Shown: piece by piece, positions 15,005 through 40,253 of the stretch
Layout: every line of letters starts with the position of its first letter
Position numbering within the stretch: position 1 is the stretch's first letter
DNA from: an uncultured Alphaproteobacteria bacterium
GTDB taxonomy: Bacteria > Pseudomonadota > Alphaproteobacteria > HIMB59 > GCA-002718135
Assembly (NCBI GenBank): GCA_902524385.1
Contig: CABZCZ010000002.1
Location: 112,541-176,540 of the forward strand
Direction of reading: 5' to 3'
Length of the DNA stretch: 64,000 nt
Made by a program: the position numbers and the translations under genes
The notes under the pieces: generated by a model
The model's input: only the letters and a program-made list of their open reading frames with translations
The model's database searches: none
Told to the model about the DNA's origin: nothing

Positions 15005-16153
15005 ATGACTAAACCATTAGAAGGATTAACTGTATTAGAATTTAGCCAGTTTTTATCAGGGCCATATGCAGGCTTAAGACTTGCTGATTTAGGAGCAAGA
15101 GTAATTAAAATTGAAAGACCAGAAGTTGGTGATCTTTGTAGAAACTTATATATAAGCGATACTGATCTCGAAGGTGATAGCACTTTATTTCATGCAATTA
15201 ATAGAAATAAGGAAAGCTTTGCAGCAAATTTAAAAGATGCCAAAGATATAGAGTTAGTAAAAAAATTAATTGAGAAGGCAGATATAATTACACAAAATTT
15301 TAGACCAGGAGTAATAGAACGTATTGGTTTAGATTATAAAAATGTAAAAAAAATAAATCCAAAAATAGTTTATGGAACTATTTCTGGTTACGGATCTGAT
15401 GGGCCCTGGAATTCATTACCTGGGCAAGATTTATTAGCACAATCTAGAACAGGTTTAGTTTGGTTAAATGGTAATGGAGGTGAAGCACCAACCCCAATGG
15501 GTTTGGCAGTTGCTGACATGTTGGCAGGACATACACTTGTTGAAGGTATACTAGCAGCGGTTATCAAAAGATTTCGAACAGATAATGGATCTCATGTAGA
15601 AACAAGTTTAGTTGAAGCCTTATTAGATTTTCAATTTGAAGTTCTTACGACATATTTTAACGATGGAAACAGAAAGCCGCAAAGAAGTTCGTATAATAAT
15701 GCCCACGCATATTTATCTGCTCCATATGGAATTTATAAAACATCCAATGGATATATAGCAATTGCAATGACACCACTGCCTCAACTTGGTGAATTACTTG
15801 ATTTAAATTCAATTAAAGATTTACATGATCAAAAAGAATGGTTCACAAAAAGAGATGAAATTAAAAAAGATATTGGCGACTGGATTGAACATCAAACAAC
15901 AGAACACTGGTTAAGTATTCTTGAGCCAGCAGATATATGGTGTGCTAAAGTACTTGATTGGGAAACAATGGTTAAACACGAAGGGTTCAAGATCCTCGAT
16001 ATGGTTCAGAGAATTAAAAGAGATGATGGACTTGATATTGAAACACTTCGTTGCCCAATAAAAATTGATGGAGAGATTTTTAAATCAAGTAAGGCAGCTC
16101 CAAAAATTGGAAATGACAATAATAGTATTATGAAAGAATTTGGTATCTCATGA
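15005..16153 (+). CDS. Family III CoA-transferase (CaiB/BaiF)
   Basis: PLEGLTVLE, LADLGARVIKIE, NRNKES, NFRPG, PGQDLLAQ. Confidence 0.92.
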   Translation: MTKPLEGLTVLEFSQFLSGPYAGLRLADLGARVIKIERPEVGDLCRNLYISDTDLEGDSTLFHAINRNKESFAANLKDAKDIELVKKLIEKADIITQNFRPGVIERIGLDYKNVKKINPKIVYGTISGYGSDGPWNSLPGQDLLAQSRTGLVWLNGNGGEAPTPMGLAVADMLAGHTLVEGILAAVIKRFRTDNGSHVETSLVEALLDFQFEVLTTYFNDGNRKPQRSSYNNAHAYLSAPYGIYKTSNGYIAIAMTPLPQLGELLDLNSIKDLHDQKEWFTKRDEIKKDIGDWIEHQTTEHWLSILEPADIWCAKVLDWETMVKHEGFKILDMVQRIKRDDGLDIETLRCPIKIDGEIFKSSKAAPKIGNDNNSIMKEFGIS

Positions 16154-17256
16154 AAATTAAAGATATAGAAATTCGTATGTGTCGACACAAAGAGCCTGTC
16201 ATGAAAGATTCAGAAATGAGAGATGGGAAAAAATCAGATTTAGAATTCTTAGTTATCACATTTCACACTGATGAAGGTCTATCTAGCTCTACTTTTGGGT
16301 TTGCAGGTAGGGGTGCAGAAATGGCTGGTGAAATTGCAAATTCAATTTTTAAACCTTTTTTTATTGGAAGAGACCCACTTTATCGTGAACAACATTGGCA
16401 TGAATACAGAACCGCAGACAGATGGTGGAACCACGCACCTATTTATAGTTATGGACCATTTGATATTAATTGTTGGCTTCTCTCATCTATGCAAGCAGGC
16501 CAACCTCTTTATAAGTATTTAGGTGCTTATAGAGACATGGTTCCAATTTATGGAAGTTCTCTAGTTTTAGATTCACCTGAGGCTTATGCAAAAGAAGCTT
16601 TGGAATATAAAAAGAGAGGTTTCAACGCTTATAAACTTCATCCTCCTGGAAAATATGATTTTGATTTGGAAGCTCATAAAAAAACACGTGAAGCAGTTGG
16701 TGATGAATTTAAGCTCATGAGTGATCCGGTTGCCCCTTATACTTTTGAACAAGCTTTACGTTTTGGAAGAGAGTTAGAAAAATTAAATTATTATTGGTAC
16801 GAGGAGCCTTTGTTTGATGAAAATTTTCATAATCTAAGGGAATTAACTAGAATATTAGATATTCCTATTATTGGAACAGAGGTTATAGCAAAACATCCTT
16901 ACAGTGTTGCTGAATGTATCTCTACAAGGGTTGTTGATATGGTAAGAGCTGATGTTTCATGGAGTGGAGGTATTACGGCTACAATGAAAACAGCACACTT
17001 AGCAGAAAGTTTTGGTGTTCAGTGTGAAATTCATACAGCTATTTATCATCCTTTAGAACTTGTTAACTTACATTGTTGTGCTGCTATAAAAAATTCTGAA
17101 TTTTTTGAAGTACTCGTTCCTTATGAATATTTTAATTTTGGTTTAAAAGATTCTATCAAAGTCGAAAACGGTTATGCTCATTTACCTTCTAAGCCAGGTC
17201 TTGGTATTGATTTAGATTGGGATTTTATAGATAATACAACTTTCAAAAAAATTTAA
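16150..17256 (+). CDS. Mandelate racemase / acid-sugar dehydratase family enzyme
   Basis: YKLH, MSDP, WYEEP, GTE, EIH, PGLGID. Confidence 0.85.
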   Translation: MKIKDIEIRMCRHKEPVMKDSEMRDGKKSDLEFLVITFHTDEGLSSSTFGFAGRGAEMAGEIANSIFKPFFIGRDPLYREQHWHEYRTADRWWNHAPIYSYGPFDINCWLLSSMQAGQPLYKYLGAYRDMVPIYGSSLVLDSPEAYAKEALEYKKRGFNAYKLHPPGKYDFDLEAHKKTREAVGDEFKLMSDPVAPYTFEQALRFGRELEKLNYYWYEEPLFDENFHNLRELTRILDIPIIGTEVIAKHPYSVAECISTRVVDMVRADVSWSGGITATMKTAHLAESFGVQCEIHTAIYHPLELVNLHCCAAIKNSEFFEVLVPYEYFNFGLKDSIKVENGYAHLPSKPGLGIDLDWDFIDNTTFKKI

Positions 17257-17258
17257 AA

Positions 17259-18560
17259 ATGACAAAGATTACTAAATTTAGTGTTCAAGATGTAAGATTT
17301 CCAACTTCAAAAGATTTAACTGGATCTGACGCCATTCATACAGATCCCGATTATTCAGCAACGTATGTGACGGTTTTTACCGATCAATCAGAATTAAAAG
17401 GATATGGTATTGCCTTCACGATTGGTAAAGGAAATGACATTGTTGCTGAATGTATAAAACATTTTTTTCCAATTTTTGAAAATATGGACTTAAATGATTT
17501 AGAAAATAACATTGGTAAGCTCTGGTTCAAGTGTGTTGATCATAGTCAACTACGTTGGTTAGGTCCTGAAAAAGGAGTTGTTCATATGGCTGTATCAGCA
17601 ATCTTTAATTGTTTATGGGATTTAATTACTAAGAAGCACAAAAAACCTTTGTGGCAGTTTGTTGTAGAAAGCGAGCCTGAAAAAATCGTTAGTTGGTTAA
17701 CATTTAAATATATTGAAGATGTTTTAACTCCAGAGGAAGCGTTAGCGATTTTGTCAAACAATCAAAATGATAAACAAAAACGTATCGATACGGTATTGCA
17801 AGAAGGATATCCATCTTACACAACTGCCGCAGGATGGCTTGGCTATTCAGATGAAAAAATAATTCAATTATGCAAAGAATATATGGCGAAAGGTTGGAAG
17901 CATTTTAAAATCAAGGTAGGTTTAGATTTAGATGCAGATGTAAAAAGACTTGAGTTAATTAGAAAAACAATTGGTGATGATTGCTTTATTATGGTTGATG
18001 CAAACCAACAATGGAACGTAGAACAATCAATTAAACATATTAATGCATACAAAAAATTTAATTTATTTTTTGTAGAAGAACCTACAAGTCCAGATGATGT
18101 AATGGGTTTTGCCAAAATAAAAAAAGAAGTTGGAAACGTAAGACTTGCAACTGGAGAAGCTTGTGGAGGTCGTATCATGTTTAAACAATTTCTCGAATCT
18201 GGTGCAATGAACATTTGTCAAATTGATAGTTGCAGATTGGGAAGTATAAATGAAATAATAACTGTATTGTTAATGGCACATAAATTTAATGTTCCAGTCT
18301 TTCCTCATGCAGGTGGTGTTGGTCTTTGTGAGTATGTCCAACACTTATGTATGATTGATTATATTTTAATTAACGGTTCTAAAAATGATAAAGTAGTAGA
18401 ATATCAAGACAGTTTACATGAACACTTCATATATCCTTGTAAAATTGAAAATGGAAATTATATGCCTCCACTTGATCATGGATATTCTATTGAAATGAAA
18501 GAAAAGTCTGTTAATGAGTTCTCTTTTCCTAACGGCAAGTATTGGAATAATAATATATGA
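17259..18560 (+). CDS. fucD: L-fuconate dehydratase
   Basis: DVRFPTS..GSDA..DPDYS, SQLRWLGPEKGV, YTTAAGWLGY, KIKVG, PHAGGVGLCE. Confidence 0.92.
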   Translation: MTKITKFSVQDVRFPTSKDLTGSDAIHTDPDYSATYVTVFTDQSELKGYGIAFTIGKGNDIVAECIKHFFPIFENMDLNDLENNIGKLWFKCVDHSQLRWLGPEKGVVHMAVSAIFNCLWDLITKKHKKPLWQFVVESEPEKIVSWLTFKYIEDVLTPEEALAILSNNQNDKQKRIDTVLQEGYPSYTTAAGWLGYSDEKIIQLCKEYMAKGWKHFKIKVGLDLDADVKRLELIRKTIGDDCFIMVDANQQWNVEQSIKHINAYKKFNLFFVEEPTSPDDVMGFAKIKKEVGNVRLATGEACGGRIMFKQFLESGAMNICQIDSCRLGSINEIITVLLMAHKFNVPVFPHAGGVGLCEYVQHLCMIDYILINGSKNDKVVEYQDSLHEHFIYPCKIENGNYMPPLDHGYSIEMKEKSVNEFSFPNGKYWNNNI

Positions 18561-19294
18561 GACTAAAAGATAAAAAAATAATAGCAACTGCAGCAGCACA
18601 AGGGATTGGCAGAGCAACTGCAATGATGTTTGCTAAAGAAGGTGCTTCTGTGATTGCTACAGATATCAATGAAGAAAAACTTAATGAATTAAACAAAGAA
18701 AATAATTTAATAAAAACTCAAAAATTAGATGCAACTAATAAAAAGGCAGTTGAAGAATTTTGTTCCAGTATTGATTCGGTTGATGTTCTTTTTCATGCAG
18801 TAGGTTTTGTTCATCATGGAACGTTATTGGAATGTGATGATGAAGAATTTTATAGATCAGTGAATGTAAACGTATATTCAGCCTATCTTATGAGCTACAA
18901 TTTAGTTCCTAAAATGTTAGAAAAAGGAAAAGGAAATATTATCATAGTATCTTCTGCAGCTTCTAATGTGAAAGGTGTTGAAAATAGATTTATATATGGA
19001 GCAACTAAAGCAGCTTTAAATGGTTTTGTTAAAGCAGTTGCGGCTGACTATGTGAAAAAAGGAATTCGATGCAATGCAATACTTCCTGGAACTGTAGAAA
19101 CACCTTCCTGGGAAGGAAGAGTAAACATGGCTGCTGATCCAAAGAAAGCTCGTGAAGACTTTATAGCGAGACAGGCAATGGGTAGATTGGCCCAACCAGA
19201 AGAAATTGCTTCACTTGCTACATATCTAGCGAGTGACGAATCATCTTTTGTAACAGGAACCTTAAATTTAATTGATGGAGGATGGACTTTATAA
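18557..19294 (+). CDS. SDR, 2-keto-3-deoxy-L-fuconate dehydrogenase (BDH2-like)
   Basis: TAAAQGIG, GFVHHGT, NRFIYGATKAA, PGTVETPS; coupled to fucD. Confidence 0.85.
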   Translation: MRLKDKKIIATAAAQGIGRATAMMFAKEGASVIATDINEEKLNELNKENNLIKTQKLDATNKKAVEEFCSSIDSVDVLFHAVGFVHHGTLLECDDEEFYRSVNVNVYSAYLMSYNLVPKMLEKGKGNIIIVSSAASNVKGVENRFIYGATKAALNGFVKAVAADYVKKGIRCNAILPGTVETPSWEGRVNMAADPKKAREDFIARQAMGRLAQPEEIASLATYLASDESSFVTGTLNLIDGGWTL

Positions 19295-20142
19295 TGAAAA
19301 CTTTAAGATATAGAATTGGAAAAGAAGTGAAACCAGGGATTGTAGATACACAAGGACAAGTTCGCGATGCTTCATCATTGGTAAAAGATTGGGATAGAGA
19401 AAATGTAACTATTGATAAGCTTAATGAAGTGAAAAAAGCTGATATTGGATCACTTCCTATTGTTCAAAGTTACGATAGTATTGCCCCTTGTGTCTGTAAA
19501 GAAAGTATTGGAAAGTTTATTTGTATAGGATTAAATTACTCAGATCATGCTGAAGAAACTGGGATGAAAGTCCCGCCTGAACCAATTATATTTGCAAAAG
19601 CAACAAGTGCTGTTATTGGTCCAAATGATGATGTAGAAATTCCTAAAAAATCTGTAAAATCTGACTGGGAAGTTGAGCTTGGAGTAATTATTGGAAAAGA
19701 AGCAAAGTATATTTCAGAAAGTGAATCACAATCTCACATAGCCGGTTACTGTGTTATTAATGATTTAAGTGAGAGAGAATTTCAGATTGAACACTCAGGT
19801 CAATGGGTAAAAGGTAAATCATGTGATACTTTTGGACCAATCGGGCCCTATTTGGTTACAACTGATGAAGTATCCGACCCACAAAATCTTAAAATGTGGT
19901 TAGAGGTAAATGGTAAAACAATGCAAAATGGCTCAACCAATACTATGGTTTATGGTGTAAATTTTCTAGTAAGTTATCTAAGTCAATTTATGTCATTGCA
20001 ACCTGGTGACATTATTTCTACTGGTACACCTCCAGGAGTAGGTATGGGAATGAAACCACAGGTATTTTTAAAGGCTGGAGATGTTATGAAATTAGGTATT
20101 GAAGGTCTTGGGGAACAATCACAAAAAACAATTCAAGCTTAA
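19294..20142 (+). CDS. FAH-family hydrolase, 2,4-diketo-3-deoxy-L-fuconate hydrolase
   Basis: CIGLNYSDH, DWEVELG, NDLSER, KGKS.DTFGP, TGTPPGVG; start reassigned to ATG 19294. Confidence 0.85.
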   Translation: MKTLRYRIGKEVKPGIVDTQGQVRDASSLVKDWDRENVTIDKLNEVKKADIGSLPIVQSYDSIAPCVCKESIGKFICIGLNYSDHAEETGMKVPPEPIIFAKATSAVIGPNDDVEIPKKSVKSDWEVELGVIIGKEAKYISESESQSHIAGYCVINDLSEREFQIEHSGQWVKGKSCDTFGPIGPYLVTTDEVSDPQNLKMWLEVNGKTMQNGSTNTMVYGVNFLVSYLSQFMSLQPGDIISTGTPPGVGMGMKPQVFLKAGDVMKLGIEGLGEQSQKTIQA

Positions 20143-21296
20143 TGTTCGGAAGCATCAATAATTGCCATAATGTAAAAGACTTTAGGAATTTAGCAAAAAA
20201 GCGACTCCCTAGCCCTATTTTTCATTATATAGATGGTGCCGCTGACGATGAAATTACATATAAAAGAAATACTGATGCTTATGAACAATGTGATCTAATC
20301 CCTAACGTTCTTAGTGGAGTTGATAAAGTTGATATGTCAACTACAGTAATGGGACAGAAATTAGACATACCTCTATATTGTGCACCTACTGCTCTTCAAA
20401 GGTTATTTCATCATGAAGGTGAGATTGGTGTTGCAAAAGCTGCTGAAAAATTTGGCACTATGTTTGGAATATCTTCCTTAGGTACGGCAAGTATAGAAGA
20501 GATATCAAATTTAGTTAAAACACCAAAACTTTTTCAACTGTATGTTCATAAAGACAAAGGATTAAACAAAGCTCTTATAGAAAGGTGTAAAGAATCTAAT
20601 TTTGAAGCAATGGCTGTAACAGTTGATACTGCTGTTGGAGGAAATCGCGAAAGAGATTTGTATACTGGTTTTACCATTCCAATGAAACTTAAACTCAATA
20701 GTGTTCTAAGTTTTATGTTACATCCAAAGTGGGCAGTAGATTATTTTACAAAACCTAAATGGGAATTAAGCAACTTAAAAGATCATATAAGTGAAGGCAC
20801 AAAAGTAATGACTACTATAGGAGATTATTTCACGAAGATGCTTGATAATTCTATGAGCTGGAAAGATGTTGAAAATATTAATAAAGAGTGGGGCCGCCAA
20901 TTCGCAATTAAAGGTGTCATGTCAGTGGAAGATGCTAAAAAAGCAGTTGATGTTGGAGCTTCAGCTATAATGGTTTCAAATCATGGAGGAAGACAATTAG
21001 ATGGATCAAGATCGCCTTTTGATCAACTAGCTGAAATAGTTGATGCTGTTGGAGATAAAATAGATGTAATATGTGAAGGAGGCATTAGAAGAGGCACGCA
21101 TGTTTTAAAAGCATTATCGCTTGGTGCAAAAGCATGTTCTGGAGGACGCATGTATTTGTATGCTTTAGCTGCTGGAGGTCAAAAAGGAGTTGAAAAAAGT
21201 TTATCTAACTTACGTAATGAAATTGAAAGAGATATGAAATTAATGGGAGTTTCTAACGTAAAAGAATTAACAAGAAAAAATCTTAAATTCAGATAA
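20142..21296 (+). CDS. lldD: FMN-dependent L-lactate / alpha-hydroxy acid dehydrogenase
   Basis: FHYIDG, FQLY, SNHGGRQLD, GGIRRG. Confidence 0.85.
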   Translation: MFGSINNCHNVKDFRNLAKKRLPSPIFHYIDGAADDEITYKRNTDAYEQCDLIPNVLSGVDKVDMSTTVMGQKLDIPLYCAPTALQRLFHHEGEIGVAKAAEKFGTMFGISSLGTASIEEISNLVKTPKLFQLYVHKDKGLNKALIERCKESNFEAMAVTVDTAVGGNRERDLYTGFTIPMKLKLNSVLSFMLHPKWAVDYFTKPKWELSNLKDHISEGTKVMTTIGDYFTKMLDNSMSWKDVENINKEWGRQFAIKGVMSVEDAKKAVDVGASAIMVSNHGGRQLDGSRSPFDQLAEIVDAVGDKIDVICEGGIRRGTHVLKALSLGAKACSGGRMYLYALAAGGQKGVEKSLSNLRNEIERDMKLMGVSNVKELTRKNLKFR

Positions 21297-21356
21297 ATCA
21301 ACAATTTTCTTAAAAAAAATATTTATTCTAATTCAATTTTATTTTAAAAATTTTGT

Positions 21357-21677
21357 ATGAATGATGAAATTGAACCAATTTTAATAGGTGAAGTTGATGA
21401 TATTGATATTGGTTCAGTAGAAAATTTTGAATATGAAGATATAAATTATGCAATTTATAGACTCGAATCTGGCTTTTTTGCAACTGAAGGAAATTGCCCT
21501 TGTGCCGAAAAACCTTTATTAAGTGAATCTAGTATTGAAGGTGAAGAACTAGAGTGCCCATCATGCGGTAATAAATTTAGCATTGTATCTGGAGACTCTC
21601 TCTCTGATTTAGAACAAATTTCATTAAAAATATTTGATATTACAGAAGAAGATGGAAATCTTTACTTAAATATTTAA
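21357..21677 (+). CDS. Rieske-fold ferredoxin (MocE-like) with atypical four-Cys ligand set
   Basis: YAIYR..GFFATEGN-CPC-x17-CPSC-GNKF..SG; acidic, 106 aa. Confidence 0.75.
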   Translation: MNDEIEPILIGEVDDIDIGSVENFEYEDINYAIYRLESGFFATEGNCPCAEKPLLSESSIEGEELECPSCGNKFSIVSGDSLSDLEQISLKIFDITEEDGNLYLNI

Positions 21678-22639
21678 CTTATAATATTATAATTTATTAT
21701 ATTACTTTTATTTAAATTTTTACTTTTAGTTAAAAAATTAAAAACATTTTCACAGGTTTCAGTAGCCATTCTTTTTCTACATTCAAGTGTAAGTGCTGAA
21801 TTGTGAGGTGTTAGCAAAGTGTTTTGTAAAGAAAATAACATATGATTTTCTATTGGAGGTTCAGTTTTAAAAACATCTAATCCAGCAGCGCGAATTTTTT
21901 TATTTTTTAAAGCATCAAATAAAGCATTTTCATTAACGATACCTCCGCGTGCAGTATTTATTAGAATTAAATTCGATTTAAATACTTCAAATTGTTCAAA
22001 AGAAATCAAATCATTTGTTTCTGAGTTTAGTGGCAAATGAATACTTATATAATCTGCAATCATAAATCCACTTTCTTTGTCTGTAGGAATATAATTCATA
22101 GAACGGATTTCATCATCGGAAATAAATGGATCATGAATGTAAATTTCCATATCAAAAGCCATGCATCTTTTAGCTAATTCTTTTCCAATTCTACCAAAAC
22201 CCAAAATAAGTATTTTTTTCTGATATAATTCAAAATAATTAGGAAGATTTGCTTTTTCTTCAAATTTATTAAGTTTAACTAATTTATCAGATTCATAGAT
22301 ATTTTTAGTTAAGCAAAGCATCATTGTCATTACATGCTCAGAAACACTTACAGCATTAGCTGTGCCTGTTATAGCTAAAGCTATTTTGTTGTCATTTAAG
22401 AAATTGTAATCAACGTTATCATAACCAACTCCATGTCTTGCAACAACCTTTAATTTTTTTGCATTTGACAGAACTTTTTTACTTAATTTGACTGTTCTTA
22501 CAACAATTCCATCCACATCAGATAATTCATTCGTAAGTTGATCTTCTTCTTTACTATTAGTAACAAAATATTCTATGTTATTATTTTCAAAGATCTCATA
22601 TCCACAAGTATGAATTTCTCCAACCACACCAACTTTCAT
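21674..22639 (-). CDS. D-isomer-specific 2-hydroxyacid dehydrogenase (SerA-like, no ACT domain)
   Basis: RHGVGYDNVD, GFGRIG, NTARGG, LDVF..EP, TPH. Confidence 0.9.
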   Translation of the reverse strand: MKVGVVGEIHTCGYEIFENNNIEYFVTNSKEEDQLTNELSDVDGIVVRTVKLSKKVLSNAKKLKVVARHGVGYDNVDYNFLNDNKIALAITGTANAVSVSEHVMTMMLCLTKNIYESDKLVKLNKFEEKANLPNYFELYQKKILILGFGRIGKELAKRCMAFDMEIYIHDPFISDDEIRSMNYIPTDKESGFMIADYISIHLPLNSETNDLISFEQFEVFKSNLILINTARGGIVNENALFDALKNKKIRAAGLDVFKTEPPIENHMLFSLQNTLLTPHNSALTLECRKRMATETCENVFNFLTKSKNLNKSNIINYNIIS

Positions 22640-22738
22640 AAAAGATTTATATTCTATAATTATAAAAAAATAAATTGATTAACTCTTTAAATTATTTTTT
22701 TATTATAATAGTATCTATTTTTTTTGCGAAAGGAACCT

Positions 22739-24583
22739 ATGAAAACAGTTAGAATGTCTTGTTCACACGCATTAATTAAATATTTAACTATGCAAAAAAT
22801 TTTAATTAATGGAAAAAAAGAACCACTTTTTCCAGGTGCATTTGGTATTTATGGTCATGGTAATGTAGCTTGTATTGGACAGGCCATGGAAGAATATCAA
22901 AATGAACTTCCAGGATACAGAGGTCATCATGAACAAAACATGGCTTTAACTGGAATAGCATATGCTCGTGCAAAAAGAAGAAAACAAATATTTGTTGCTA
23001 CTTCGTCAGTTGGACCAGGCGCAACTAACATGGTTACCGCAGCAGCAGTTGCATTAAGCAACAGACTTCCAATTTTACTTTTACCAGGTGATACATTTTC
23101 AAGTCGTTTTCCAGACCCTGTTTTACAACAAGTAGAACATTTTAATTCTCCTTCAGAAACTCAGAATGATTCATTTAAATCTGTATCAAGATATTTTGAT
23201 CGAATAACTAGACCTGAACAAATTTTAACTTCTTTACCTCAAGCAATTAATGTGATGCTTGACCCTGCAGATTGTGGTCCTGCAGTAATTTCGATGTCAC
23301 AAGATGTTCAAGGAGAAGCTTTTGATTATCCAGAAATTTTTTTTGAAGAAAAAATTTATCGAATAAGAAGAATTCACCCTGATCCAAATCAAATACAAAA
23401 AGCAGCTGATAAATTAAAAAAATCAAAACAACCTATTATTATTTCTGGAGGAGGTGTTTTATATTCAGAAGCTGAAGAGGAAATTTCTGCTTTTGCAATG
23501 AAACATAATATTCCCGTAACTGCAACTGTAATGGGTATTGGATGTATGAACAAAGATGATCCCTATTATATAAGTGCAATTGGATGTTTAGGAGAAGGCT
23601 CATCTAATAACCTTGCTACAGATACAGATTTAGCACTAGCTGTAGGAACAAAATTAGGAGACTTTACAACTGGCTCTTGGACGAATTTTGAAAATGAAAA
23701 TTTTCAACTTGTATCAATAAATACTTCACGATTTGACACTATAAAACATCGTGCAACTCCTGTTGTAAGTGATGCAAAAATTGGACTTCAAGAATTATCA
23801 AAAGTATTAGGAGATTGGAGAGCGCCTGATAATTGGTACCAGCGATCTATTGAGGAAAGAGATAGATGGGATGAATATGTTGCTAAAGAGAGTGGGCCAA
23901 CAAACCAAGAATTACCGTCCTATGCTCATGCAGTGGGTGCAGTTTATAGAAATTCAGATCCATCAGATATTGTTGTAACTGCAGCTGGAGGCTTAGTTGG
24001 AGAAGTGGTTCAAATATGGAAACCAAAAGAGCTAAATACTTTTGAAACTGAATGGGGATTTAGTTGCATGAGTTATGAAATATCGGGTGCACTTGGAATT
24101 AAAATGGCAAAACCTGATCAAGATGTAATTGTATTTGTAGGAGATGGTTCATACCTATTACAAAACAGCGATATTTATAGTTCTGTTTTGTATGATAAAA
24201 AATTAATAATAGTTGTTTGTGATAATGGTGGTCATATGGTTATTAATAGATTGCAGCTAGCAAAAGGTGGGAATGAATATCTTTGTAATCTCAATGCAGC
24301 CAGAGCTACAAATGTACAGTTTGTAGATTTTGAAGCTCATGCAAAAAGTATGGGGGCAAATGGTGAGACCGTTAAATCCATTTCAGAGTTAGAGGCTGCT
24401 TTTAAAAGAGCAAAAGAATCAGACAAAACCTATCTGATTTCTATGAAAACAGATGGTTATGAATGGTTAGAAGGTACAGCTTTTTGGGAGAGTCCAACAC
24501 TTGAAGTGGATAATACCGAAGGTAAGAAATTAGCTCTTAATGAATTTTTAGAAGGAAAAAATAAACAACGTAAGGGCGTATAA
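22739..24583 (+). CDS. iolD: 3D-(3,5/4)-trihydroxycyclohexane-1,2-dione acylhydrolase (ThDP enzyme)
   Basis: GHGNV, SSVGPGATN, PDPVLQQ, GFSCMSYEI, VGDGSY; start reassigned to ATG 22739. Confidence 0.9.
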   Translation: MKTVRMSCSHALIKYLTMQKILINGKKEPLFPGAFGIYGHGNVACIGQAMEEYQNELPGYRGHHEQNMALTGIAYARAKRRKQIFVATSSVGPGATNMVTAAAVALSNRLPILLLPGDTFSSRFPDPVLQQVEHFNSPSETQNDSFKSVSRYFDRITRPEQILTSLPQAINVMLDPADCGPAVISMSQDVQGEAFDYPEIFFEEKIYRIRRIHPDPNQIQKAADKLKKSKQPIIISGGGVLYSEAEEEISAFAMKHNIPVTATVMGIGCMNKDDPYYISAIGCLGEGSSNNLATDTDLALAVGTKLGDFTTGSWTNFENENFQLVSINTSRFDTIKHRATPVVSDAKIGLQELSKVLGDWRAPDNWYQRSIEERDRWDEYVAKESGPTNQELPSYAHAVGAVYRNSDPSDIVVTAAGGLVGEVVQIWKPKELNTFETEWGFSCMSYEISGALGIKMAKPDQDVIVFVGDGSYLLQNSDIYSSVLYDKKLIIVVCDNGGHMVINRLQLAKGGNEYLCNLNAARATNVQFVDFEAHAKSMGANGETVKSISELEAAFKRAKESDKTYLISMKTDGYEWLEGTAFWESPTLEVDNTEGKKLALNEFLEGKNKQRKGV

Positions 24584-24617
24584 AAATAAATTTCTTTTTC
24601 TAAAATTTAAAAATTGT

Positions 24618-25646
24618 ATGAGTCAAAACAAGCCTATAATTTTATTAGATCCATATCCAAGAACAATGGACCTACTTTTTTCTAAAGAAAATTTAAAATA
24701 CTTAAAAAAAAATTTTAAACTTATTACTGCTCCAAATAAAAATAAAAAAAATTTTTATGAAAAAAATTTACCAAAGGCAGATTATATTTTTGGGCAACCC
24801 AATTTACCTTTATCTTTAATTTCTAAATCTAAAAAACTTAAAGCAATATTTAATGTAGAGAGCAATTTTATGGACAATATGGATTATGATTATTGTTTTA
24901 GAAAAGGAATACATGTATTAGCAACATCTCCTGTTTTTGCTCAACCCGTTGCTGAAATGGCAATGGGACTTACTTTATCAATAGCAAGAAGTATTCATAT
25001 TGCCCACTCAGACTTTATTTTAAAAAAAGAAAGGTATGGAGGAGAAATTAGTCAGAATAATTTTTTAATAAAAAATAAAACATTTGGTTTAATTGGTTTT
25101 GGTGATTTAGCAAAATCACTTACTCCTATACTAAAAGTATTCTCAAATAATATAATCGCTTATGATCCTTGGATTCCTGATAAAGAAATTGAAAAATTGG
25201 ATGTTAAGCCTACCAGTTTAAATTTGTTACTCAAAAATGCTGACATCATTTATGTACTCGCGTCTATTACTTCTTCTAATAAATCTATGATTAATTCTTC
25301 AAAGTTTAAATTAATAAAAGATGGATCAGCGTTTGTATTAATGAGTAGAGCAGCCATAATAAATTTTGATGATTTTTTTAATTTTTTAAAAAATAGAAAT
25401 GTATTTGCTGCTATTGATGTTTTTCCACAAGAACCATTTCCTAAAAATCATAAATTAAGAAAACTCAAAAATGTAATTTTTTCTCCGCATAGGGCTGGTG
25501 CATTAGACAGTGCATTTAAAGAGATGGGTGAATTAGTAATTCAAGATTTAAAACTGATTTCAAAAGGCCTACCTCCTAAATTATGTAAAAAAGCTGAAAG
25601 AGAAACTGTTAAATATTTACGATCGAAACCAGTTGATATTAATTAA
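24618..25646 (+). CDS. D-2-hydroxyacid dehydrogenase family protein
   Basis: GFGDLA, YDPW, DVFPQEP, SPHRAG. Confidence 0.82.
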   Translation: MSQNKPIILLDPYPRTMDLLFSKENLKYLKKNFKLITAPNKNKKNFYEKNLPKADYIFGQPNLPLSLISKSKKLKAIFNVESNFMDNMDYDYCFRKGIHVLATSPVFAQPVAEMAMGLTLSIARSIHIAHSDFILKKERYGGEISQNNFLIKNKTFGLIGFGDLAKSLTPILKVFSNNIIAYDPWIPDKEIEKLDVKPTSLNLLLKNADIIYVLASITSSNKSMINSSKFKLIKDGSAFVLMSRAAIINFDDFFNFLKNRNVFAAIDVFPQEPFPKNHKLRKLKNVIFSPHRAGALDSAFKEMGELVIQDLKLISKGLPPKLCKKAERETVKYLRSKPVDIN

Positions 25647-25667
25647 AATTTATTTAAAAACATAGTT

Positions 25668-26414
25668 ATGTCAGATCAATTAGTACTGGAAGCTAAATCA
25701 GTTTCAAAATTCTTTGGTACTATAACAGCTCTTCAAAATGTAGATCTTCATTTAAATAAAGGTGAGGTTCTAGGTGTCGTTGGCGATAACGGTGCTGGGA
25801 AATCAACATTAATGAAAGTTTTATCAGGATTATACAAGCCAAGTGAAGGGTCTCTTTTTTTTGATAAAGAGAAAGTAACATTAAATAGTCCAAGAGACTC
25901 TCAAAATTTGGGTTTAGAAATGGTCTATCAAGATTTAGCACTTGCTGGGAACCTTCCTATTGGCGATAATATTTTTTTAGGAAGAGAACCAACAAGAAAA
26001 GTTGGCCCTTTCAATTTTTTAGATCATAAAAAAAAAAAACAGTTAACCGAAGAGCATCTTGCAAAACTAAAAATAAACGTAAAGAGTGCTGATCAAAAGG
26101 TTGAAGAATTATCAGGTGGACAAAGACAAGCTGTAGCAATTGCTAGAGCTACAGCTTTTAATGCAAAAATTGTATTGATGGATGAACCAACAGCAGCACT
26201 TGCTGTTAAGGAAGTTGGAAAAGTTTTAGATTTAATTTTAAATCTTAAAAAGTTAGGTGTTAGTGTAATAGTAATTAGCCATCGAATGGATGATATTTTT
26301 ACTGTTTGTGATCGCGTAATGGCACTTTTTCAAGGAACAAATTTTGCTGAATCAGAATTAAAAAAAACTTCAAGAGACGAAGTTATTGGATGGATCATGG
26401 GGAAAAAAGATTAA
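25668..26414 (+). CDS. Monosaccharide ABC ATP-binding protein (single domain)
   Basis: GDNGAGKS, YQDLAL, LSGGQRQ, DEPTAAL. Confidence 0.93.
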   Translation: MSDQLVLEAKSVSKFFGTITALQNVDLHLNKGEVLGVVGDNGAGKSTLMKVLSGLYKPSEGSLFFDKEKVTLNSPRDSQNLGLEMVYQDLALAGNLPIGDNIFLGREPTRKVGPFNFLDHKKKKQLTEEHLAKLKINVKSADQKVEELSGGQRQAVAIARATAFNAKIVLMDEPTAALAVKEVGKVLDLILNLKKLGVSVIVISHRMDDIFTVCDRVMALFQGTNFAESELKKTSRDEVIGWIMGKKD

Positions 26415-27421
26415 TGGATAAGAGTCAAGAATCTTTATTTGTCAGACTAATTCCTTTTTTTGAAAGGTATGGGATCTTATTACTTATCCTAATAATGATT
26501 GCTGTTTTGCATTTGTTACAACCTGATGTGTTTTTATCATGGAGAAATGTAACAAATATTTTTAAACAGGTTTCCTGGCAGTCTATGTTAGCACTTGGTG
26601 TCTTTATGGTCATTGTAACTGCAGGTATAGATTTATCAGTCGGTTCAATTATTATGTTATCATTAATGGGACTAGCTATTGCTTCCAAAGCAGGAATGCC
26701 TTGGTACGTTGTTATGTTAGTTGCACCAGCAATTGGATTTTTGTGTGGTATGTTTAATGGTATTGGCATCACGTTACTTCGAATGCCTCATCCATTCATC
26801 ATGACACTTGGTACTCTATATATATTCAGAGGAATTGGGAATCTAATTTCAGGCGGTGTGCCAATAACAGGATTTGCTGAACAGATAAGAGTTATTGGAA
26901 ATGGTAAAATCAAGCTAGATGCATTTTTTGGAGAAGGGGCAAGAGAATACATACCCACAAGTTTAATTTTGATGATTGTAATATTTTTTATTTTTTGGAT
27001 ATTTTTAAATCATACAAGAATAGGTAAATGGATCTACGCTATTGGAGGTAACCCTGGAGCTGCAAGAGCAGCAGGTATTAATGTAGACCGAATTTTAATC
27101 GTAGTTTACACTCTATGTGGTTTTTTGGCGGGAATTGGAGGTTTAATTTTAGCTGGAAGAACGAATTCTGCTTATCCAAATGCTGGTTTACAATCTGAGT
27201 TAGATGCAATTGCGGCAGTCATAATTGGTGGAGCGAGCTTTTTTGGAGGCAGAGGAACAGTATTAGGCGTGTTTGCTGGAGTTATGATAATGGGTATACT
27301 CCGAAATGGTCTAAATTTGATGAACGTTAGTGTTTTCTGGCAACAAGTTCTGATTGGTTCTATTATTATTTTGGCCGTTTATATTGATGTTTTAAGAAGA
27401 CAACTTGCAACCAGAACATAA
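26414..27421 (+). CDS. Monosaccharide ABC permease (RbsC-like)
   Basis: GIDLSVG, AIGGN..AA, ELDAIAAVIIGG; start reassigned to ATG 26414. Confidence 0.92.
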   Translation: MDKSQESLFVRLIPFFERYGILLLILIMIAVLHLLQPDVFLSWRNVTNIFKQVSWQSMLALGVFMVIVTAGIDLSVGSIIMLSLMGLAIASKAGMPWYVVMLVAPAIGFLCGMFNGIGITLLRMPHPFIMTLGTLYIFRGIGNLISGGVPITGFAEQIRVIGNGKIKLDAFFGEGAREYIPTSLILMIVIFFIFWIFLNHTRIGKWIYAIGGNPGAARAAGINVDRILIVVYTLCGFLAGIGGLILAGRTNSAYPNAGLQSELDAIAAVIIGGASFFGGRGTVLGVFAGVMIMGILRNGLNLMNVSVFWQQVLIGSIIILAVYIDVLRRQLATRT

Positions 27422-27510
27422 TATTAAAAAATAATCACTTTCTGACAAACAGTCTCTTGATTAGATTTTCATTTTTCATTAATGGTTAAAAAAAAAATTT
27501 AGGAGGAAAA

Positions 27511-28428
27511 ATGAAATTTTTTATTTCTATAATTACTACTTCAGTATTGTTTTTTTCAGGTAGCCTTCTAGCAGGCTCACACGCTAAAACAATAATGTTA
27601 AGTACCAAAGGACCAGGTGCTGGAAACCCATTTTGGGCTTCAGTAGAAGCTGGTGCTAAAGATGCTGCTGAAGAATTAGGTGTTAACCTAATTATCCTAT
27701 CACCACCACAAGAGAGTGATGTTATGGCTCAGGTGGCGCAAATTGAAGACCAAATAGCAAAAGGTGTAGACGGTATTGCGATTGCACCAACTGACCCTAA
27801 TGCAGTTGCACCAATTCTTGATGATGCAATGGCTTCTGGTGTTCCAGTTGTATACATTGATACTAATGGAATTAATGAAGGTGTAACTTTCATTGGAACT
27901 AATAATATTAATGGTGCTGCTTTAGCCGCTCAATACATCTGTGATAACGTTCCAAGTGGCTCTGATGTTGCAATTCTTCAAGGAATGATAACTCAAACTA
28001 CTGGTCAGCACAGAGCTGAAGGATCTCATAAAGGTCTTGAAGCATGTGGCATGAACATTGTTGCTGAACTTCCAGCTAACTGGGATACCGCACAAGGTAT
28101 GTCAGTAACTGAAGATATCTTAACTGGTAACCCCAATCTAAAAGCAATCTTTGCTTCTAATGATAATATGGGTCTAGGCGCTATCCAAGCATTAAAAAAT
28201 GCTGATATGCTAGATGATGTTTTGGTTGTTGGATTTGATGCTAACCCTGATGCTGCTGCAAGTGTAATGGCTGGTGAAATGTCAGCTACTATTGCTCAGT
28301 TCTCATACAACATGGGATATATGGGTGTAGAAAATGCACTTAAATTAGCTAATGGTGAAAGCATTCCAGATAACATTGATACTGGAACTGTGTTAGTAAC
28401 TAAAGAAAATGCTGCTGACTTTATGTAA
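27511..28428 (+). CDS. Sugar/polyol ABC substrate-binding protein (RbsB-like)
   Basis: Signal peptide, NPFW, ANW, ASNDNM, VGFD; AGGAGG SD. Confidence 0.92.
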   Translation: MKFFISIITTSVLFFSGSLLAGSHAKTIMLSTKGPGAGNPFWASVEAGAKDAAEELGVNLIILSPPQESDVMAQVAQIEDQIAKGVDGIAIAPTDPNAVAPILDDAMASGVPVVYIDTNGINEGVTFIGTNNINGAALAAQYICDNVPSGSDVAILQGMITQTTGQHRAEGSHKGLEACGMNIVAELPANWDTAQGMSVTEDILTGNPNLKAIFASNDNMGLGAIQALKNADMLDDVLVVGFDANPDAAASVMAGEMSATIAQFSYNMGYMGVENALKLANGESIPDNIDTGTVLVTKENAADFM

Positions 28429-28449
28429 GTCATCAAGACTATTTAAATT

Positions 28450-28478
28450 AAAAAGGCCGCAATTTGCGGCCTTTTTTT
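28450..28478 (+). terminator. Rho-independent terminator
   Basis: AAAAAGGCCGCA...TGCGGCCTTTTTTT. Confidence 0.88.
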
Positions 28479-28543
28479 ATTAAAATATAACATTTACATA
28501 TTGAATTAATTCCTTAAATTGAAATGATTATTTAGGAGGAAAA

Positions 28544-29497
28544 ATGAAAAAATTTATTTTAATTATAGCTTCGGCTGTAAGTTTATTAACTTTTTCTTTC
28601 TCAGCAAATGCACTTAAAGTAGGTGCTCTATATCTTGATACTGCTGGTTTTTTTGGTGAGATTAAATATGGTATAGAAAAAGCTGGGGAAGAAGAAGGTA
28701 TCGAGCTAACTGGAGCGAATTCTCAAAGTGATGTAGCAAGGGAAGCTGAATTTATCGATACGCTTTTAGCAACTGGCGTTGATGTTGTAATAATGTCACC
28801 AGTTTCAACTGATTCTTCTGTTGCAGCTGTTGAAAGACTTGCAGAAGCAGGTGTTCCAGTTGTATGCTATAATACATGTTTAAATGATGAAGATGCTAAA
28901 AGACTCGCTTATGCACTTGTTACTACAAGTCAAAGAGAGTTGGGTTATCCAGTTGGTGTTATTGCTGGAAACTGGGCAATCAAAGCTGGTATTGATTTAA
29001 AAATTGGTATTCATAATTGTAATAGATACGAAGCTTGTCAGGAAAGAGAAGATGGTTTTATAGATGGACTAAATTCTACAGGTGTAAATTTTGAAGTTAT
29101 CAATAACCAAGAAGCCTTTGCAAATGATGTTGCAACTCAAGTTGGTACAGACATGCTTATTGCAAACCCTGAAATTAACCTAATGTATGCTGCTAATGAA
29201 GGTGGGACAATTGGTGCCGTTAATGCTGTTCTGGCAGCAGGACAAATTGGTCAAACATACGTAATGGGAACTGATGCAACTGCAGAATTAATGAATTTTG
29301 TAAGTGATGGAGAAATTCTATTAGCTGTTAATTCACAATTCCCAAGAGATATGGGAGCAGGTGCAATGAGAGCTGCACTAAAAGCAGTTAAAGGTGAGGC
29401 TATCGACGAATATGTTCAATTAACACCTACTAAAGTATTTACTTCTATAGACAAAATAGCCATTGATACATGGTTGTCTGAAAGAGGATACGACTAA
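28544..29497 (+). CDS. Sugar ABC substrate-binding protein (RbsB-like)
   Basis: Signal peptide ending ANA, GVPVVCYN, AANEGG; AGGAGG SD. Confidence 0.9.
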   Translation: MKKFILIIASAVSLLTFSFSANALKVGALYLDTAGFFGEIKYGIEKAGEEEGIELTGANSQSDVAREAEFIDTLLATGVDVVIMSPVSTDSSVAAVERLAEAGVPVVCYNTCLNDEDAKRLAYALVTTSQRELGYPVGVIAGNWAIKAGIDLKIGIHNCNRYEACQEREDGFIDGLNSTGVNFEVINNQEAFANDVATQVGTDMLIANPEINLMYAANEGGTIGAVNAVLAAGQIGQTYVMGTDATAELMNFVSDGEILLAVNSQFPRDMGAGAMRAALKAVKGEAIDEYVQLTPTKVFTSIDKIAIDTWLSERGYD

Positions 29498-29507
29498 CTA
29501 TTTTTTT

Positions 29508-29534
29508 AAGGGGTATCTAAAGATACCCCTTTTT
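29508..29534 (+). terminator. Hairpin between binding protein and permease
   Basis: AAGGGGTATC-TAAA-GATACCCCTT followed by T-run. Confidence 0.72.
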
Positions 29535-29537
29535 CTT

Positions 29538-30530
29538 ATGACAGAACAGACTCTAGAAAAAACTAAAAAGAGAATAAAAATCAGTAATCTGCATGAGATA
29601 GGATTGCTTATAGCGTTAATTATTGTCTTACTTTTATTTTCTTTCACTACTGAAAACTTTTTTACACAAAGAAATTTTACAAGTATTTTGAGAAGTGCCT
29701 CTTATGTTGGTTTAATTGCTTTTCCAATGACTTTTGTCCTTATCACTAGAGAAATAGATATTAGTGTTGGACCATCAGTTGCTTGGTCAGGTTTACTTTT
29801 TGTAATTTTAATAAAGTGGTACGACTTTGGTTATTTAACTTCAGCTGTAATAGTAATTTTATGGGGGACCTTACTAGGGTATTTTATAGGAGTAGCTAGA
29901 ACAAAATTATTCATTCCTACATTTATTACAACTTTAGCACTATGGAGTGCCTTAAGAGGCTATTCTCTTTTTGTTACCGAAGGTCGGCCTATAGCAATAA
30001 GTAATAAGGAATTTAGATATTTTTTTGGAGGAGATATTTTAGGTTTACCAACAGTCACATGGATAATGCTTGGAGCTTTTCTTATTTTTTGGTTTGCAAG
30101 CAAGTATACTGTTACCGGAACTAACTTCTATGCAGTTGGTGGAAATCCTAAAGCTGCAAGAAATATTGGTATTAATGTTGATAGAGTAAAGATTTTAGCA
30201 TTAATAGGAACCAGTCTTTTTTCTGCTATTGTTGGTATATTATTTGTGGCTAGAGTTTCCTCTGGAAACGCAAATTTAGCAGATGGAATGGAATTTGACG
30301 TTATAGCTGCAGTTGTTGTTGGAGGAACAGCACTTGCAGGTGCTGTAGGAACTATGACTGGTACACTTCTAGGATGTGTTTTTATAGCAATGATTAGCAA
30401 TGGATTAATACATTGGGGTATAGATCCTGATTTGAATAGAGTAGTAAAAGGAATAATTATTTTTTTAGCTGTTGTAATTAATTCAAATTTTACCTTTAAA
30501 TCAAATTCAGGTGGACCAAAAGAGGACTAA
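29538..30530 (+). CDS. Monosaccharide ABC permease
   Basis: EIDISVG, AVGGN..AA, EFDVIAAVVVGG; start reassigned to ATG 29538. Confidence 0.9.
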   Translation: MTEQTLEKTKKRIKISNLHEIGLLIALIIVLLLFSFTTENFFTQRNFTSILRSASYVGLIAFPMTFVLITREIDISVGPSVAWSGLLFVILIKWYDFGYLTSAVIVILWGTLLGYFIGVARTKLFIPTFITTLALWSALRGYSLFVTEGRPIAISNKEFRYFFGGDILGLPTVTWIMLGAFLIFWFASKYTVTGTNFYAVGGNPKAARNIGINVDRVKILALIGTSLFSAIVGILFVARVSSGNANLADGMEFDVIAAVVVGGTALAGAVGTMTGTLLGCVFIAMISNGLIHWGIDPDLNRVVKGIIIFLAVVINSNFTFKSNSGGPKED

Positions 30531-31270
30531 TGGAGATTCTAGAATTAAATAAAATATCTAAAAATTTTGGAGCTATAAAGGCATTGGATAACGTTACACT
30601 TTCATTAAGATCAGGTGAAGTTTTAGGATTAATGGGAGACAATGGTGCTGGTAAATCTACTTTAATTAAAATTATAGCAGGCAATTTTAAACAGTCATCT
30701 GGAACAATAAATTTTGAAAATAAAAAAGTTCAATTTTCAAAACCTATGGAAGCGAGAGATAAAGGTATAGAAGTTGTCTACCAAGATTTGGCATTGTGTG
30801 ATAATTTAACTGCTGCCTCAAATATTTTTCTTACAAGGGAGATTAAGAGAAATTTTGGAATACTAAAAATAATTAATTTTTCAGAGATGTTCAAAAGAGC
30901 TAAAGATATTTTCAAAGAACTTAAATCTGAAACTTTACCAGATGAGGAAGTGAAAATGATGTCTGGTGGGCAAAGACAAGCAGTTGCCATTGGTAGAACA
31001 AAATTATCAGCAGCTAAAGTTGTATTATTAGATGAGCCTACTGCAGCAATTAGCGTAAGACAGGTTGCAGAAGTTCTAGAGTTAATTAAGCAACTTAAAA
31101 ATCAAGGTATTGCGGTTGTAATTATTAGTCATAGAATGCCAGATGTATTCGCTGTTAGCGATAGAATAGCTGTACTTAGGAGAGGCCAGTTAGTGGCTAA
31201 TAAACTAGCGAAAGAAAGTTCACCTGAAGAAGTTACAGCTTTAATAACCGGTGCTATTGAAAAAGCTTGA
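30530..31270 (+). CDS. Monosaccharide ABC ATP-binding protein (single domain)
   Basis: GDNGAGKS, MSGGQRQ, DEPTAA. Confidence 0.93.
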   Translation: MEILELNKISKNFGAIKALDNVTLSLRSGEVLGLMGDNGAGKSTLIKIIAGNFKQSSGTINFENKKVQFSKPMEARDKGIEVVYQDLALCDNLTAASNIFLTREIKRNFGILKIINFSEMFKRAKDIFKELKSETLPDEEVKMMSGGQRQAVAIGRTKLSAAKVVLLDEPTAAISVRQVAEVLELIKQLKNQGIAVVIISHRMPDVFAVSDRIAVLRRGQLVANKLAKESSPEEVTALITGAIEKA

Positions 31271-31291
31271 TTATAGAATTATTTTATAATT

Positions 31292-33084: not shown

Positions 33085-33130
33085 AAATATTGTTTATTTT
33101 TTTTTAATAAAAATTATATATATAAAATAT

Positions 33131-34159: not shown

Positions 34160-34220
34160 CGTAATTTTATTTTTCAATTTTTTATTTTAAATTTTGTAGT
34201 AATGTATATCATTTAACAGT

Positions 34221-35369: not shown

Positions 35370-35484
35370 TAATAAATTTTACCTTTTGTTCATTAGTGCG
35401 ATAATTTTACGTTTAAATTCACAATATTTCTGCTTGTTTTACAAATCTATTCTTGCTAGGGAAACATAAAAATAGGAGGAATGC

Positions 35485-36450: not shown

Positions 36451-36462
36451 CAAAAACAATGT

Positions 36463-36494: not shown

Positions 36495-36508
36495 AAGTAA
36501 GAAATTAT

Positions 36509-40251: not shown

Positions 40252-40253
40252 AT

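Follow-up and report, generated by a model that had tools for sequence, protein, structure and literature searches.

The window analysed here is a stretch of 64,000 nucleotides from an uncultured alphaproteobacterium of the HIMB59 lineage (GenBank assembly GCA_902524385.1, contig CABZCZ010000002.1, positions 112,541 to 176,540 of the forward strand). Our subject is a short gene at 21357..21677 of this window, which encodes a protein of 106 residues that lacks His and whose only Cys are those at positions 47, 49, 67 and 70 (hereafter the 4-Cys gene and the 4-Cys protein). The initial annotation described the product as a Rieske-fold ferredoxin in which both His ligands are replaced by Cys, and translation confirms the open reading frame (ORF) and the pattern C47-P-C49-x17-C67-P-S-C70 as it was written there. 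The gene has the following features.

21357..21677, plus strand: the 4-Cys gene, an ORF whose translation gives a protein of 106 residues, predicted to have the Rieske fold and bearing Cys at all four ligand positions
21495..21503, plus strand: first ligand loop, C47-P-C49, replacing the Rieske C-x-H (alignment to 1vck)
21555..21569, plus strand: second ligand loop, C67-P-S-C70-G71, replacing the Rieske C-P-x-H-G and reading as a C-x-x-C-G knuckle (alignment to 1vck)
21495-21497 (TGC), 21501-21503 (TGT), 21555-21557 (TGC) and 21564-21566 (TGC), plus strand: the four Cys codons

Fold, ligand positions and conservation

His ligation defines Rieske centres and is responsible both for their high potential, which depends on pH, and for the coupling of their electron transfer to protons. 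The corresponding ligand motif, C-x-H...C-x-x-H with two Cys and two His, is absent from the 4-Cys protein, which reads C-P-C...C-P-S-C instead. By the genetic code, each His-to-Cys change needs two base substitutions (CAY to TGY), as the initial annotation had argued.

To place the protein, we compared it with profiles, structures and models. It passes the curated cut-off of the Pfam Rieske family PF00355 (24.8 bits against 20.3), and the match must be considered marginal because a six-frame scan of the whole genome with the same profile omits the gene. Using phmmer, the best PDB chain is the carbazole dioxygenase ferredoxin CarAc (1vck, E 5.2e-8), with matches at 24-25% identity, and the alignment to it sets C47 and C49 on C-x-H and C67 and C70 on C-x-x-H. 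All NCBIfam matches lie below their cut-offs; the best is NirD (40.8 bits, E 2e-10; cut-off 74.65), ahead of MocE (34.3 bits; cut-off 136.15), with HcaC at 29-31 bits. Membership in the MocE family (TIGR02377) was rejected, as the score is under the cut-off and there is no MocD-type oxygenase/MocF-type reductase arrangement. Membership in the NirD family (TIGR02378) was rejected on its score and on the absence of a NirB-like gene from the window, the only part of the genome that was searched for NirB.

The AlphaFold2 model, built with 51 family members in the alignment, has a mean predicted local distance difference test score (pLDDT) of 84.4 and a predicted template modelling score (pTM) of 0.70. 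A Foldseek search of the PDB matched this model to Rieske ferredoxins at template modelling (TM) scores of 0.83-0.88, with a root-mean-square deviation of 1.6-2.1 Å over about 100 columns. The matches comprise CarAc, BphA3, the naphthalene and toluene dioxygenase ferredoxins and T4moC, and the best folds among them, those of CarAc, BphA3 and the naphthalene dioxygenase (NDO) ferredoxin, reach 0.85-0.88, so the model bears out the Rieske fold that had been proposed. Cluster-less NirD structures (3c0d, 2jo6, 4aiv) rank slightly lower in the same list, and the look-alikes of the model in the ESM Atlas are clusters of 'putative Rieske domain-containing protein' only. A rubredoxin identity was also considered and rejected: the first loop is C-x-C, the four Pfam families listed at E <=10 do not include rubredoxin (PF00301), and the predicted fold is a full Rieske domain. 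The protein carries 26 Asp and Glu against 4 Lys and Arg (isoelectric point 4.05), which resembles the canonical Rieske ferredoxin of the same genome. The 4-Cys protein is small, very acidic and soluble, its model has the fold of the Rieske-type ferredoxins, and alignment and model agree in putting its four Cys where these ferredoxins have their ligands.

The conservation of these positions was examined at two levels. A word-index search gave 749 clusters of homologs at E <= 1e-3, nearly all exactly 106 residues long and of marine origin, and motifs were counted in the best 120 of the 749. All 120 have the four Cys, and 119 have the pattern C-x-C-x17-C-x-x-C; the odd one, P0095, keeps its four Cys and has a seven-residue deletion between them that shortens the spacer. 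The His-type motif C-x-H...C-x-x-H was found in 0 of the 120, so close homologs share the CxC/CxxC arrangement and do not retain His ligands. That the protein contains no His at all, as the initial annotation had stated, is true of the copy in the window and does not extend to the family, since 81 of the 120 homologs have His elsewhere, 6 with C-H-C. Among the 119 homologs that match the motif, the middle residue of the first loop varies freely (N, P, T, L, Y, H, A, Q, S, F, I, V) between invariant Cys, and the two residues inside the last Cys pair are also variable. Gly follows the last Cys in 116 of the 119, giving the C-x-x-C-G knuckle. In all 119 the two loops are 17 residues apart, whereas 93 of the 105 canonical motifs in the profile hits have a spacer of 16.

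The second level consisted of 62 related genomic loci (contigs, one genome per species). The motif is intact in all 62, and both TGT and TGC occur at each of the four Cys positions. The median pairwise ratio of nonsynonymous to synonymous substitution rates (dN/dS) is 0.13 for the 4-Cys gene (223 pairs), compared with 0.076 for the neighbouring flavoenzyme gene (272 pairs). Because the Cys are invariant, both codons are used, the intervening residues are free to change and dN/dS is about 0.13, the four Cys are a fixed family trait and not a product of decay. With the Cys kept in 120/120 homologs and the motif in 62/62 loci, the pattern is not a product of chance. The four Cys are thus strictly conserved under purifying selection, and the longer spacer and the Gly after the last Cys are fixed derived features. 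Together with the predicted fold, the invariant Cys agree with the proposal of a natural, conserved all-Cys variant of the Rieske ferredoxins.

The range of the family is narrow. In a survey of 187 genomes of the order to which the window belongs, orthologs (at least 172 bits) are present in 91 of the 116 genomes of the window's family and in 0 of the 71 of the sister family, and the weaker matches of 65-80 bits in this survey are the canonical Rieske paralog. The 4-Cys family is confined to one family of small-genome marine alphaproteobacteria, for which 'SAR11-like' is a provisional label. A profile search of 1.84 billion representatives returned a handful of full-length 4-Cys clusters at 50% identity (P0121, P0122, P0124) and fragments, followed by a gap and then, below E 1e-17, by ordinary C-x-H...C-x-x-H ferredoxins. 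In a quick maximum-likelihood tree of 111 columns, in which many forks are open and support is given by the Shimodaira–Hasegawa-like approximate likelihood ratio test (SH-aLRT) only, the 4-Cys family forms one clade (branch 0.74, SH-aLRT 93) apart from the canonical ferredoxin of the genome. A scan of metagenome contigs with the divergent member P0124 for an independent genomic context gave no confirmed locus. The profile hits also contain a second, unrelated Rieske-like clade: P0173, P0179 and P0257 carry C-x-C-x16-C-x-x-C, between two and four ligand positions are lost in their ten closest relatives (P0271-P0280), and these thirteen sequences form one clade with an SH-aLRT of 99. This second clade may record how a metal site was lost on the way to a ligand-less protein like NirD.

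Gene neighbourhood and expression

The 4-Cys gene is the last same-strand gene of a deoxy-sugar block and stands right after a gene for a flavin mononucleotide (FMN)-dependent dehydrogenase (FMN_dh). The features around it, with one cassette located elsewhere in the genome, are listed below.

3121-4299, plus strand: L-rhamnonate dehydratase (NCBIfam, 446 bits, above cut-off)
6298-6627, minus strand: L-rhamnose mutarotase, further upstream in the window
15005..20142, plus strand: upstream operon of a CoA-transferase III, two enolase-superfamily dehydratases, an SDR and a FAH-family hydrolase (Pfam; synteny in related loci)
20142..21296, plus strand: FMN-dependent alpha-hydroxy-acid (L-lactate) dehydrogenase-like gene (LldD-like; FMN_dh E 6e-130), the proposed partner
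21320..21346, plus strand: conserved A/T-rich motif (TATTTATTCT, ~8 nt, TTTATT[CT]TA), ending about 10 nt before the ATG
21674..22639, minus strand: convergent D-2-hydroxyacid dehydrogenase, whose end overlaps the 4-Cys stop codon by 4 bases
22724..24583, plus strand: IolD (myo-inositol catabolism; TIGR04377, 765 bits against a cut-off of 715), which opens a variable sugar island
31292-32263, 33131-34159 and 39268-40251: three MocD-like FA_desaturase genes of the sugar island, 10-18 kb downstream of the 4-Cys gene
40741-43636, plus strand: sulfatase adjoining a xylose-isomerase-like TIM-barrel gene
C5:76159-79422 and C5:79327-80052 (L001), on another contig of the same genome: canonical MocD-type cassette of a MocD-like gene, reductase, ferredoxin and PanB-like gene

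L-lactate dehydrogenase is the closest NCBIfam family of the LldD-like protein (316 bits, under the cut-off of 376), and the FAH hydrolase matches 2,4-didehydro-3-deoxy-L-rhamnonate hydrolase (E 1.8e-114, 382 bits, under the cut-off of 500). The non-phosphorylative route for L-rhamnose and L-fucose with a diketo-hydrolase step ends in pyruvate and L-lactate. The upstream block should likewise yield pyruvate and L-lactate, and the FMN enzyme would then oxidise the lactate. In other bacteria, lldD genes are reported to sit within rhamnose regulons (PMC3870299).

The order of the genes around the 4-Cys gene is well kept. Its upstream neighbour is the FMN_dh gene in 60 of the 62 loci, the exceptions being a contig edge and L057, where the FAH gene takes this place, and the gap between the LldD and 4-Cys genes measures 42-63 bp in all but one locus (L039, 317 bp behind a truncated LldD frame). 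On the downstream side, the convergent dehydrogenase comes first in 58 of 62 loci; IolD is next in 54 of these 58 and directly follows the 4-Cys gene in 2 more. With these fixed neighbours (FMN_dh in 60/62, 2-hydroxyacid dehydrogenase in 58/62) and the low MocE score given above, the 'MocE-like context' of the initial annotation is not supported, and its remark that the window contains no MocF-type reductase matches the domain scans of the window.

The convergent 2-hydroxyacid dehydrogenase is unusually variable at 53-94% identity, with its neighbours reaching 96-99% in the closest loci, and in L062 (10001-10318) the LldD gene is 98.7% identical to that of the window and the 4-Cys gene only 63%. 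Since the identities diverge there, a recombination boundary between the LldD and 4-Cys genes is suggested. In the more distant genomes of L069, L070 and L071, the LldD-like gene directly adjoins the genes Glyoxalase-RibF-IleS, from which it is separated in the window by about 19 kb (21674-40679) of IolD, ABC transporters, MocD-like genes and PhyH. As it is absent from between LldD and Glyoxalase-RibF-IleS elsewhere, this stretch behaves as a variable insertion island starting at the 4-Cys gene. Downstream of IolD it takes the form of a long island of sugar ABC transporters. Five ABC import systems, with the rhamnose, sulfatase and xylose-isomerase-like genes, make up a sugar-utilisation region that is large for a genome of 1.4 Mb. 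A second FMN_dh paralog of 387 residues lies at C14:31918-33081 (minus strand) beside a 580-residue ORF, with no Rieske-like gene adjoining it.

The A/T-rich motif at 21320-21346 falls within the 60-bp gap (21297-21356) between the LldD and 4-Cys genes and consists of two half-sites, TTATT[CT]T, separated by about 8 nt. It emerged when 12 intergenic regions were aligned, the Rieske genes beside them being 60-96% identical, and it persists where the coding regions are only 60-70% identical. An exact search of the window for the composite motif gave no match, as the second half-site of the window has T for C. A relaxed search of the whole genome returned this site and one loose match, and the idea of a regulon motif was therefore rejected. 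Being conserved and essentially unique in the genome, the motif suggests a promoter or another control element of the 4-Cys gene's own. Rfam gave no family in 21100-22900 apart from two chance-level matches to small nucleolar RNAs (E 0.7-0.8). Between 20900 and 22900, a promoter scan found 7 promoter-like sites against 12.6 expected and a terminator scan found none after LldD and none after the 4-Cys gene, both scans being uninformative in A/T-rich DNA.

In all four of four seawater metatranscriptome runs, contigs at a minimum of 90% identity cover parts of the gene (21542-21754, 21459-21665, 21393-21754 and 21396-21541). This is a weak sign that the 4-Cys gene is transcribed, with DNA carry-over possible in RNA libraries. 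None of the pieces listed for the four runs spans the junction of the LldD and 4-Cys genes, and such contigs cannot show transcript ends.

Candidate roles and the metal site

The reading that we favour, although we give it less than an even chance, is a Cys4-ligated iron carrier that accepts electrons from the neighbouring LldD-like flavoenzyme, the partner being suggested by gene order alone. Four thiolates would hold redox-active iron, either as an all-Cys [2Fe-2S] cluster or as a rubredoxin-like Fe(Cys)4 site, which we rate about equal. The protein would serve as a one-electron acceptor and shuttle, taking electrons from reduced FMN after the oxidation of L-lactate and passing them on towards the respiratory chain, in like manner to the cytochrome b5 domain of yeast flavocytochrome b2, which takes electrons from the flavin. 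Its role for the flavoenzyme would be optional and not obligatory, because close orthologs of the flavoenzyme exist without a 4-Cys gene. A rubredoxin-like site at about 0 mV would suit an acceptor for reduced FMN, and the retained acidic surface argues for an electron-transfer surface. A search for rubredoxin genes in the genome, which is 80% complete, found none, so no rubredoxin competes for the role of carrier. We consider it unlikely that the relation goes further, with a redox-active all-Cys iron centre as the one-electron acceptor dedicated to a soluble FMN L-lactate dehydrogenase in a two-component 'flavo-ferredoxin' enzyme.

Several observations weigh against an iron carrier for the flavoenzyme. 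An LldD ortholog (E <= 1e-150) is present in 89 of the 91 genomes with the 4-Cys gene, the exceptions being G009, whose contig ends at the gene, and G107. This co-occurrence says little because the genes are adjacent in close kin, and the synteny is not independent evidence because all positive loci are close kin. Strict co-occurrence with the LldD-like flavoenzyme was not found. Three genomes (G115, G106 and G108, 85-93% complete) have an LldD-like gene at 60-69% identity and no 4-Cys gene; they also have no FAH ortholog and no IolD, and their LldD adjoins Glyoxalase-RibF-IleS, which lies 19 kb further on in the window. In the sister family, G125 and G184 lack a 4-Cys gene although their operon is complete as far as LldD, which is 83-84% identical. 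The slot after LldD is filled in these two genomes by an unrelated ORF of 162-166 residues (P0281; L075 9059-9544, plus strand; L076 7122-7619, minus strand), and the 162-residue ORF showed no Pfam family and no hint of a substitute carrier. The 4-Cys gene is also found where the flavoenzyme is missing or broken: in G107 (91% complete) it stands right behind the FAH hydrolase, with no LldD ortholog found, and in L039 (8025-8903, equal to G044:C10:33671-34552) the LldD frame has an internal TGA and the 4-Cys gene is intact. L039 comes from a single-cell genome, and its 293-residue LldD ORF followed by the 317-bp gap could be a pseudogene or a sequencing error. IolD is present in 29 of 34 sister-family genomes, none of which has a 4-Cys gene. 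As LldD, FAH, IolD and MocD-like genes each occur without a 4-Cys gene, no neighbour is an obligatory partner. Predicting the complex of the LldD-like and 4-Cys proteins from alignments of 27 rows each gave an interaction prediction score from aligned errors (ipSAE) of 0.00 in two runs, made without controls, and carries no weight in either direction on their binding. The 4-Cys gene may further have its own promoter or operator at the intergenic motif, and an all-Cys [2Fe-2S] cluster, at well below -200 mV, would be too low to accept electrons from lactate. In the second Rieske-like lineage the Cys4 site is dispensable, since P0271-P0280 have lost ligand positions, a finding that in general terms also backs a non-redox role.

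A serious rival, nearly as likely as the iron carrier, is a structural zinc site: the protein would be a non-redox accessory protein in which Zn(Cys)4 stabilises the two loops and the Rieske scaffold acts as a binding module, as in NirD. In Hsp33, the pattern C-x-C...C-x-x-C binds zinc tetrahedrally, which makes a mononuclear site chemically plausible and counts against the iron carrier. Zinc in place of iron would suit an iron-poor ocean. The Cys-bearing residues 47-99 weakly match zinc-ribbon models (Trm112p, E 0.0076 in Pfam; LysW, E 9.1e-6 in NCBIfam), the second loop forms a C-(P)-x-C-G knuckle, NirD leads MocE among the NCBIfam matches and NirD structures are among the fold matches, and the second lineage runs from C-x-C...C-x-x-C to no ligands. 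Further evidence comes from ARF, a Rieske-type ferredoxin of Sulfolobus whose ligands have been exchanged (reviewed in PMC2946596). Its H64C variant has a [2Fe-2S] cluster of low potential, ligated by three Cys and one His, cluster assembly fails in H44C, and the double exchange H44C/H64C, with the same ligand set as the 4-Cys protein, 'largely impaired the cluster assembly', which also speaks against the iron carrier. When the first loop was redesigned to C-x-x-C (H44I/K45C/H64C), a stable rubredoxin-like Fe(Cys)4 site formed that also holds Zn; the same source says that Rieske cluster loops share geometry with rubredoxin and zinc ribbons (PMC2946596). The fixed one-residue-longer spacer could compensate for the exchange and make room for a cluster or a single ion. 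Against zinc, the ligands stay in the exact Rieske register C-x-C and not in the C-x-x-C of the mononuclear redesign (PMC2946596), the extreme acidity typical of electron-transfer ferredoxins is kept, the NirD score is far under 74.65, no NirB-like partner lies in the window, to which the search for NirB was limited, and no binding partner has been identified.

Quite improbable, and the least probable of the roles considered, is a thiol switch or a function in metal handling, in which the protein would bind Zn or Fe reversibly, or form disulfides on oxidation, and so sense redox state or metal supply. The pattern is that of the zinc redox switch of Hsp33, the 4-Cys gene has its own conserved upstream motif, and it persists when either neighbour is lost; yet all 106 residues form one Rieske domain, a DNA-binding or chaperone domain is absent, no such switch is known in the Rieske fold, and nothing in the gene context indicates stress or metal homeostasis. 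Also improbable, though less so, is the role put forward in the initial annotation, that of an electron donor for MocD-like enzymes, here as an alternative low-potential or rubredoxin-like donor for these membrane di-iron oxygenases, reduced by the single BphA4/MocF-type reductase of the genome. The related AlkB enzymes use a Cys4 rubredoxin, and no rubredoxin gene was found in this genome. Seven FA_desaturase-family (MocD-like) genes are present, three of them in the same sugar island as the 4-Cys gene, and a single reductase/ferredoxin pair serves all seven; MocD-like genes number up to 8 per genome in the 4-Cys family and mostly 1 in the sister family. The single pair is located on contig C5, in the order MocD-like gene, 410-residue reductase (BphA4/MocF-type, the sole Reductase_C match in the genome), 105-residue Rieske ferredoxin with C-T-H...C-P-M-H, and PanB-like gene. 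The distribution of these genes nevertheless argues against the donor role. Only 3 of 62 loci have a MocD-like gene at a distance of up to 10 kb from the 4-Cys gene. The canonical ferredoxin, by comparison, travels with MocD-like genes, namely in the C5 cassette (L001), in L072 (5420-6801) and in L073 (3533-7309), with the reductase in L001 and L073 only. The co-occurrence with MocD-like genes that had been proposed as a check breaks down in G067 (85% complete), which has the 4-Cys gene and no FA_desaturase match, and G069, G097, G001 and G107, which also have the 4-Cys gene, possess one MocD-like gene each. MocD-like genes are present in 32 of 34 sister-family genomes, and a Rieske-ferredoxin match of any kind in only 2 of 71.

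Comparison with known systems

The 4-Cys protein probably holds a metal centre of a kind not described for the Rieske fold. No natural all-Cys Rieske-fold protein was found in the literature searched, which left most subscription journals outside its coverage, and the literature on SAR11 and rhamnose and on MocE and MocD yielded nothing on the 4-Cys protein. A natural all-Cys Rieske scaffold offers a test case for metal choice, potential and compensating changes, for which the engineered double mutant is too poorly assembled. In streamlined hosts of the open ocean, the choice between two Fe, one Fe and Zn bears on iron economy. If the link to the flavoenzyme is true, it would add a new type of partner to the family of FMN alpha-hydroxy-acid dehydrogenases and sharpen the picture of how these bacteria burn fucose and rhamnose. 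It would also provide an abundant ocean clade with a counterpart of flavocytochrome b2, and show a natural solution to a ligand swap that fails in the laboratory.

The closest known relatives in structure are the ferredoxins of Rieske oxygenases (CarAc, 1vck; BphA3/BphF, 2e4p/1fqt; NDO, 2qpz; T4moC; MocE), with which the 4-Cys protein shares the predicted fold, length, acidity and loop register. It differs from them in having Cys for both His and a spacer of 17 instead of the usual 16 residues, its gene has no adjacent reductase or oxygenase, and its scores fall far under the MocE, HcaC and AndAb cut-offs. The ARF H44C/H64C variant presents the identical ligand set, C-x-C...C-x-x-C, on a Rieske scaffold (PMC2946596). 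The double mutant assembled its cluster poorly, whereas the natural proteins, with C-x-C retained and the inter-loop stretch one residue longer, have been maintained by selection across hundreds of sequence clusters. NirD, the small subunit of assimilatory nitrite reductase, is like the 4-Cys protein a stand-alone Rieske-like protein without His ligands that is encoded beside a flavoenzyme. NirD has no metal ligands and its neighbour is NirB, whereas the 4-Cys protein has four invariant Cys and stands next to an FMN alpha-hydroxy-acid dehydrogenase. Rubredoxin and zinc-ribbon knuckles share the set of four Cys and the C-(P)-x-C-G second loop; compared with rubredoxin, the 4-Cys protein has C-x-C and not C-x-x-C in the first loop, is twice as long and is predicted to form a full Rieske beta-sandwich. 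In flavocytochrome b2, which serves as an analogy for the mechanism only, a small one-electron carrier is joined to a module of the FMN alpha-hydroxy-acid dehydrogenase type. That carrier is a haem b5 domain fused to the enzyme, whereas the 4-Cys protein would be a separate Cys4 metal protein, whose pairing with the flavoenzyme is suggested by gene order only.

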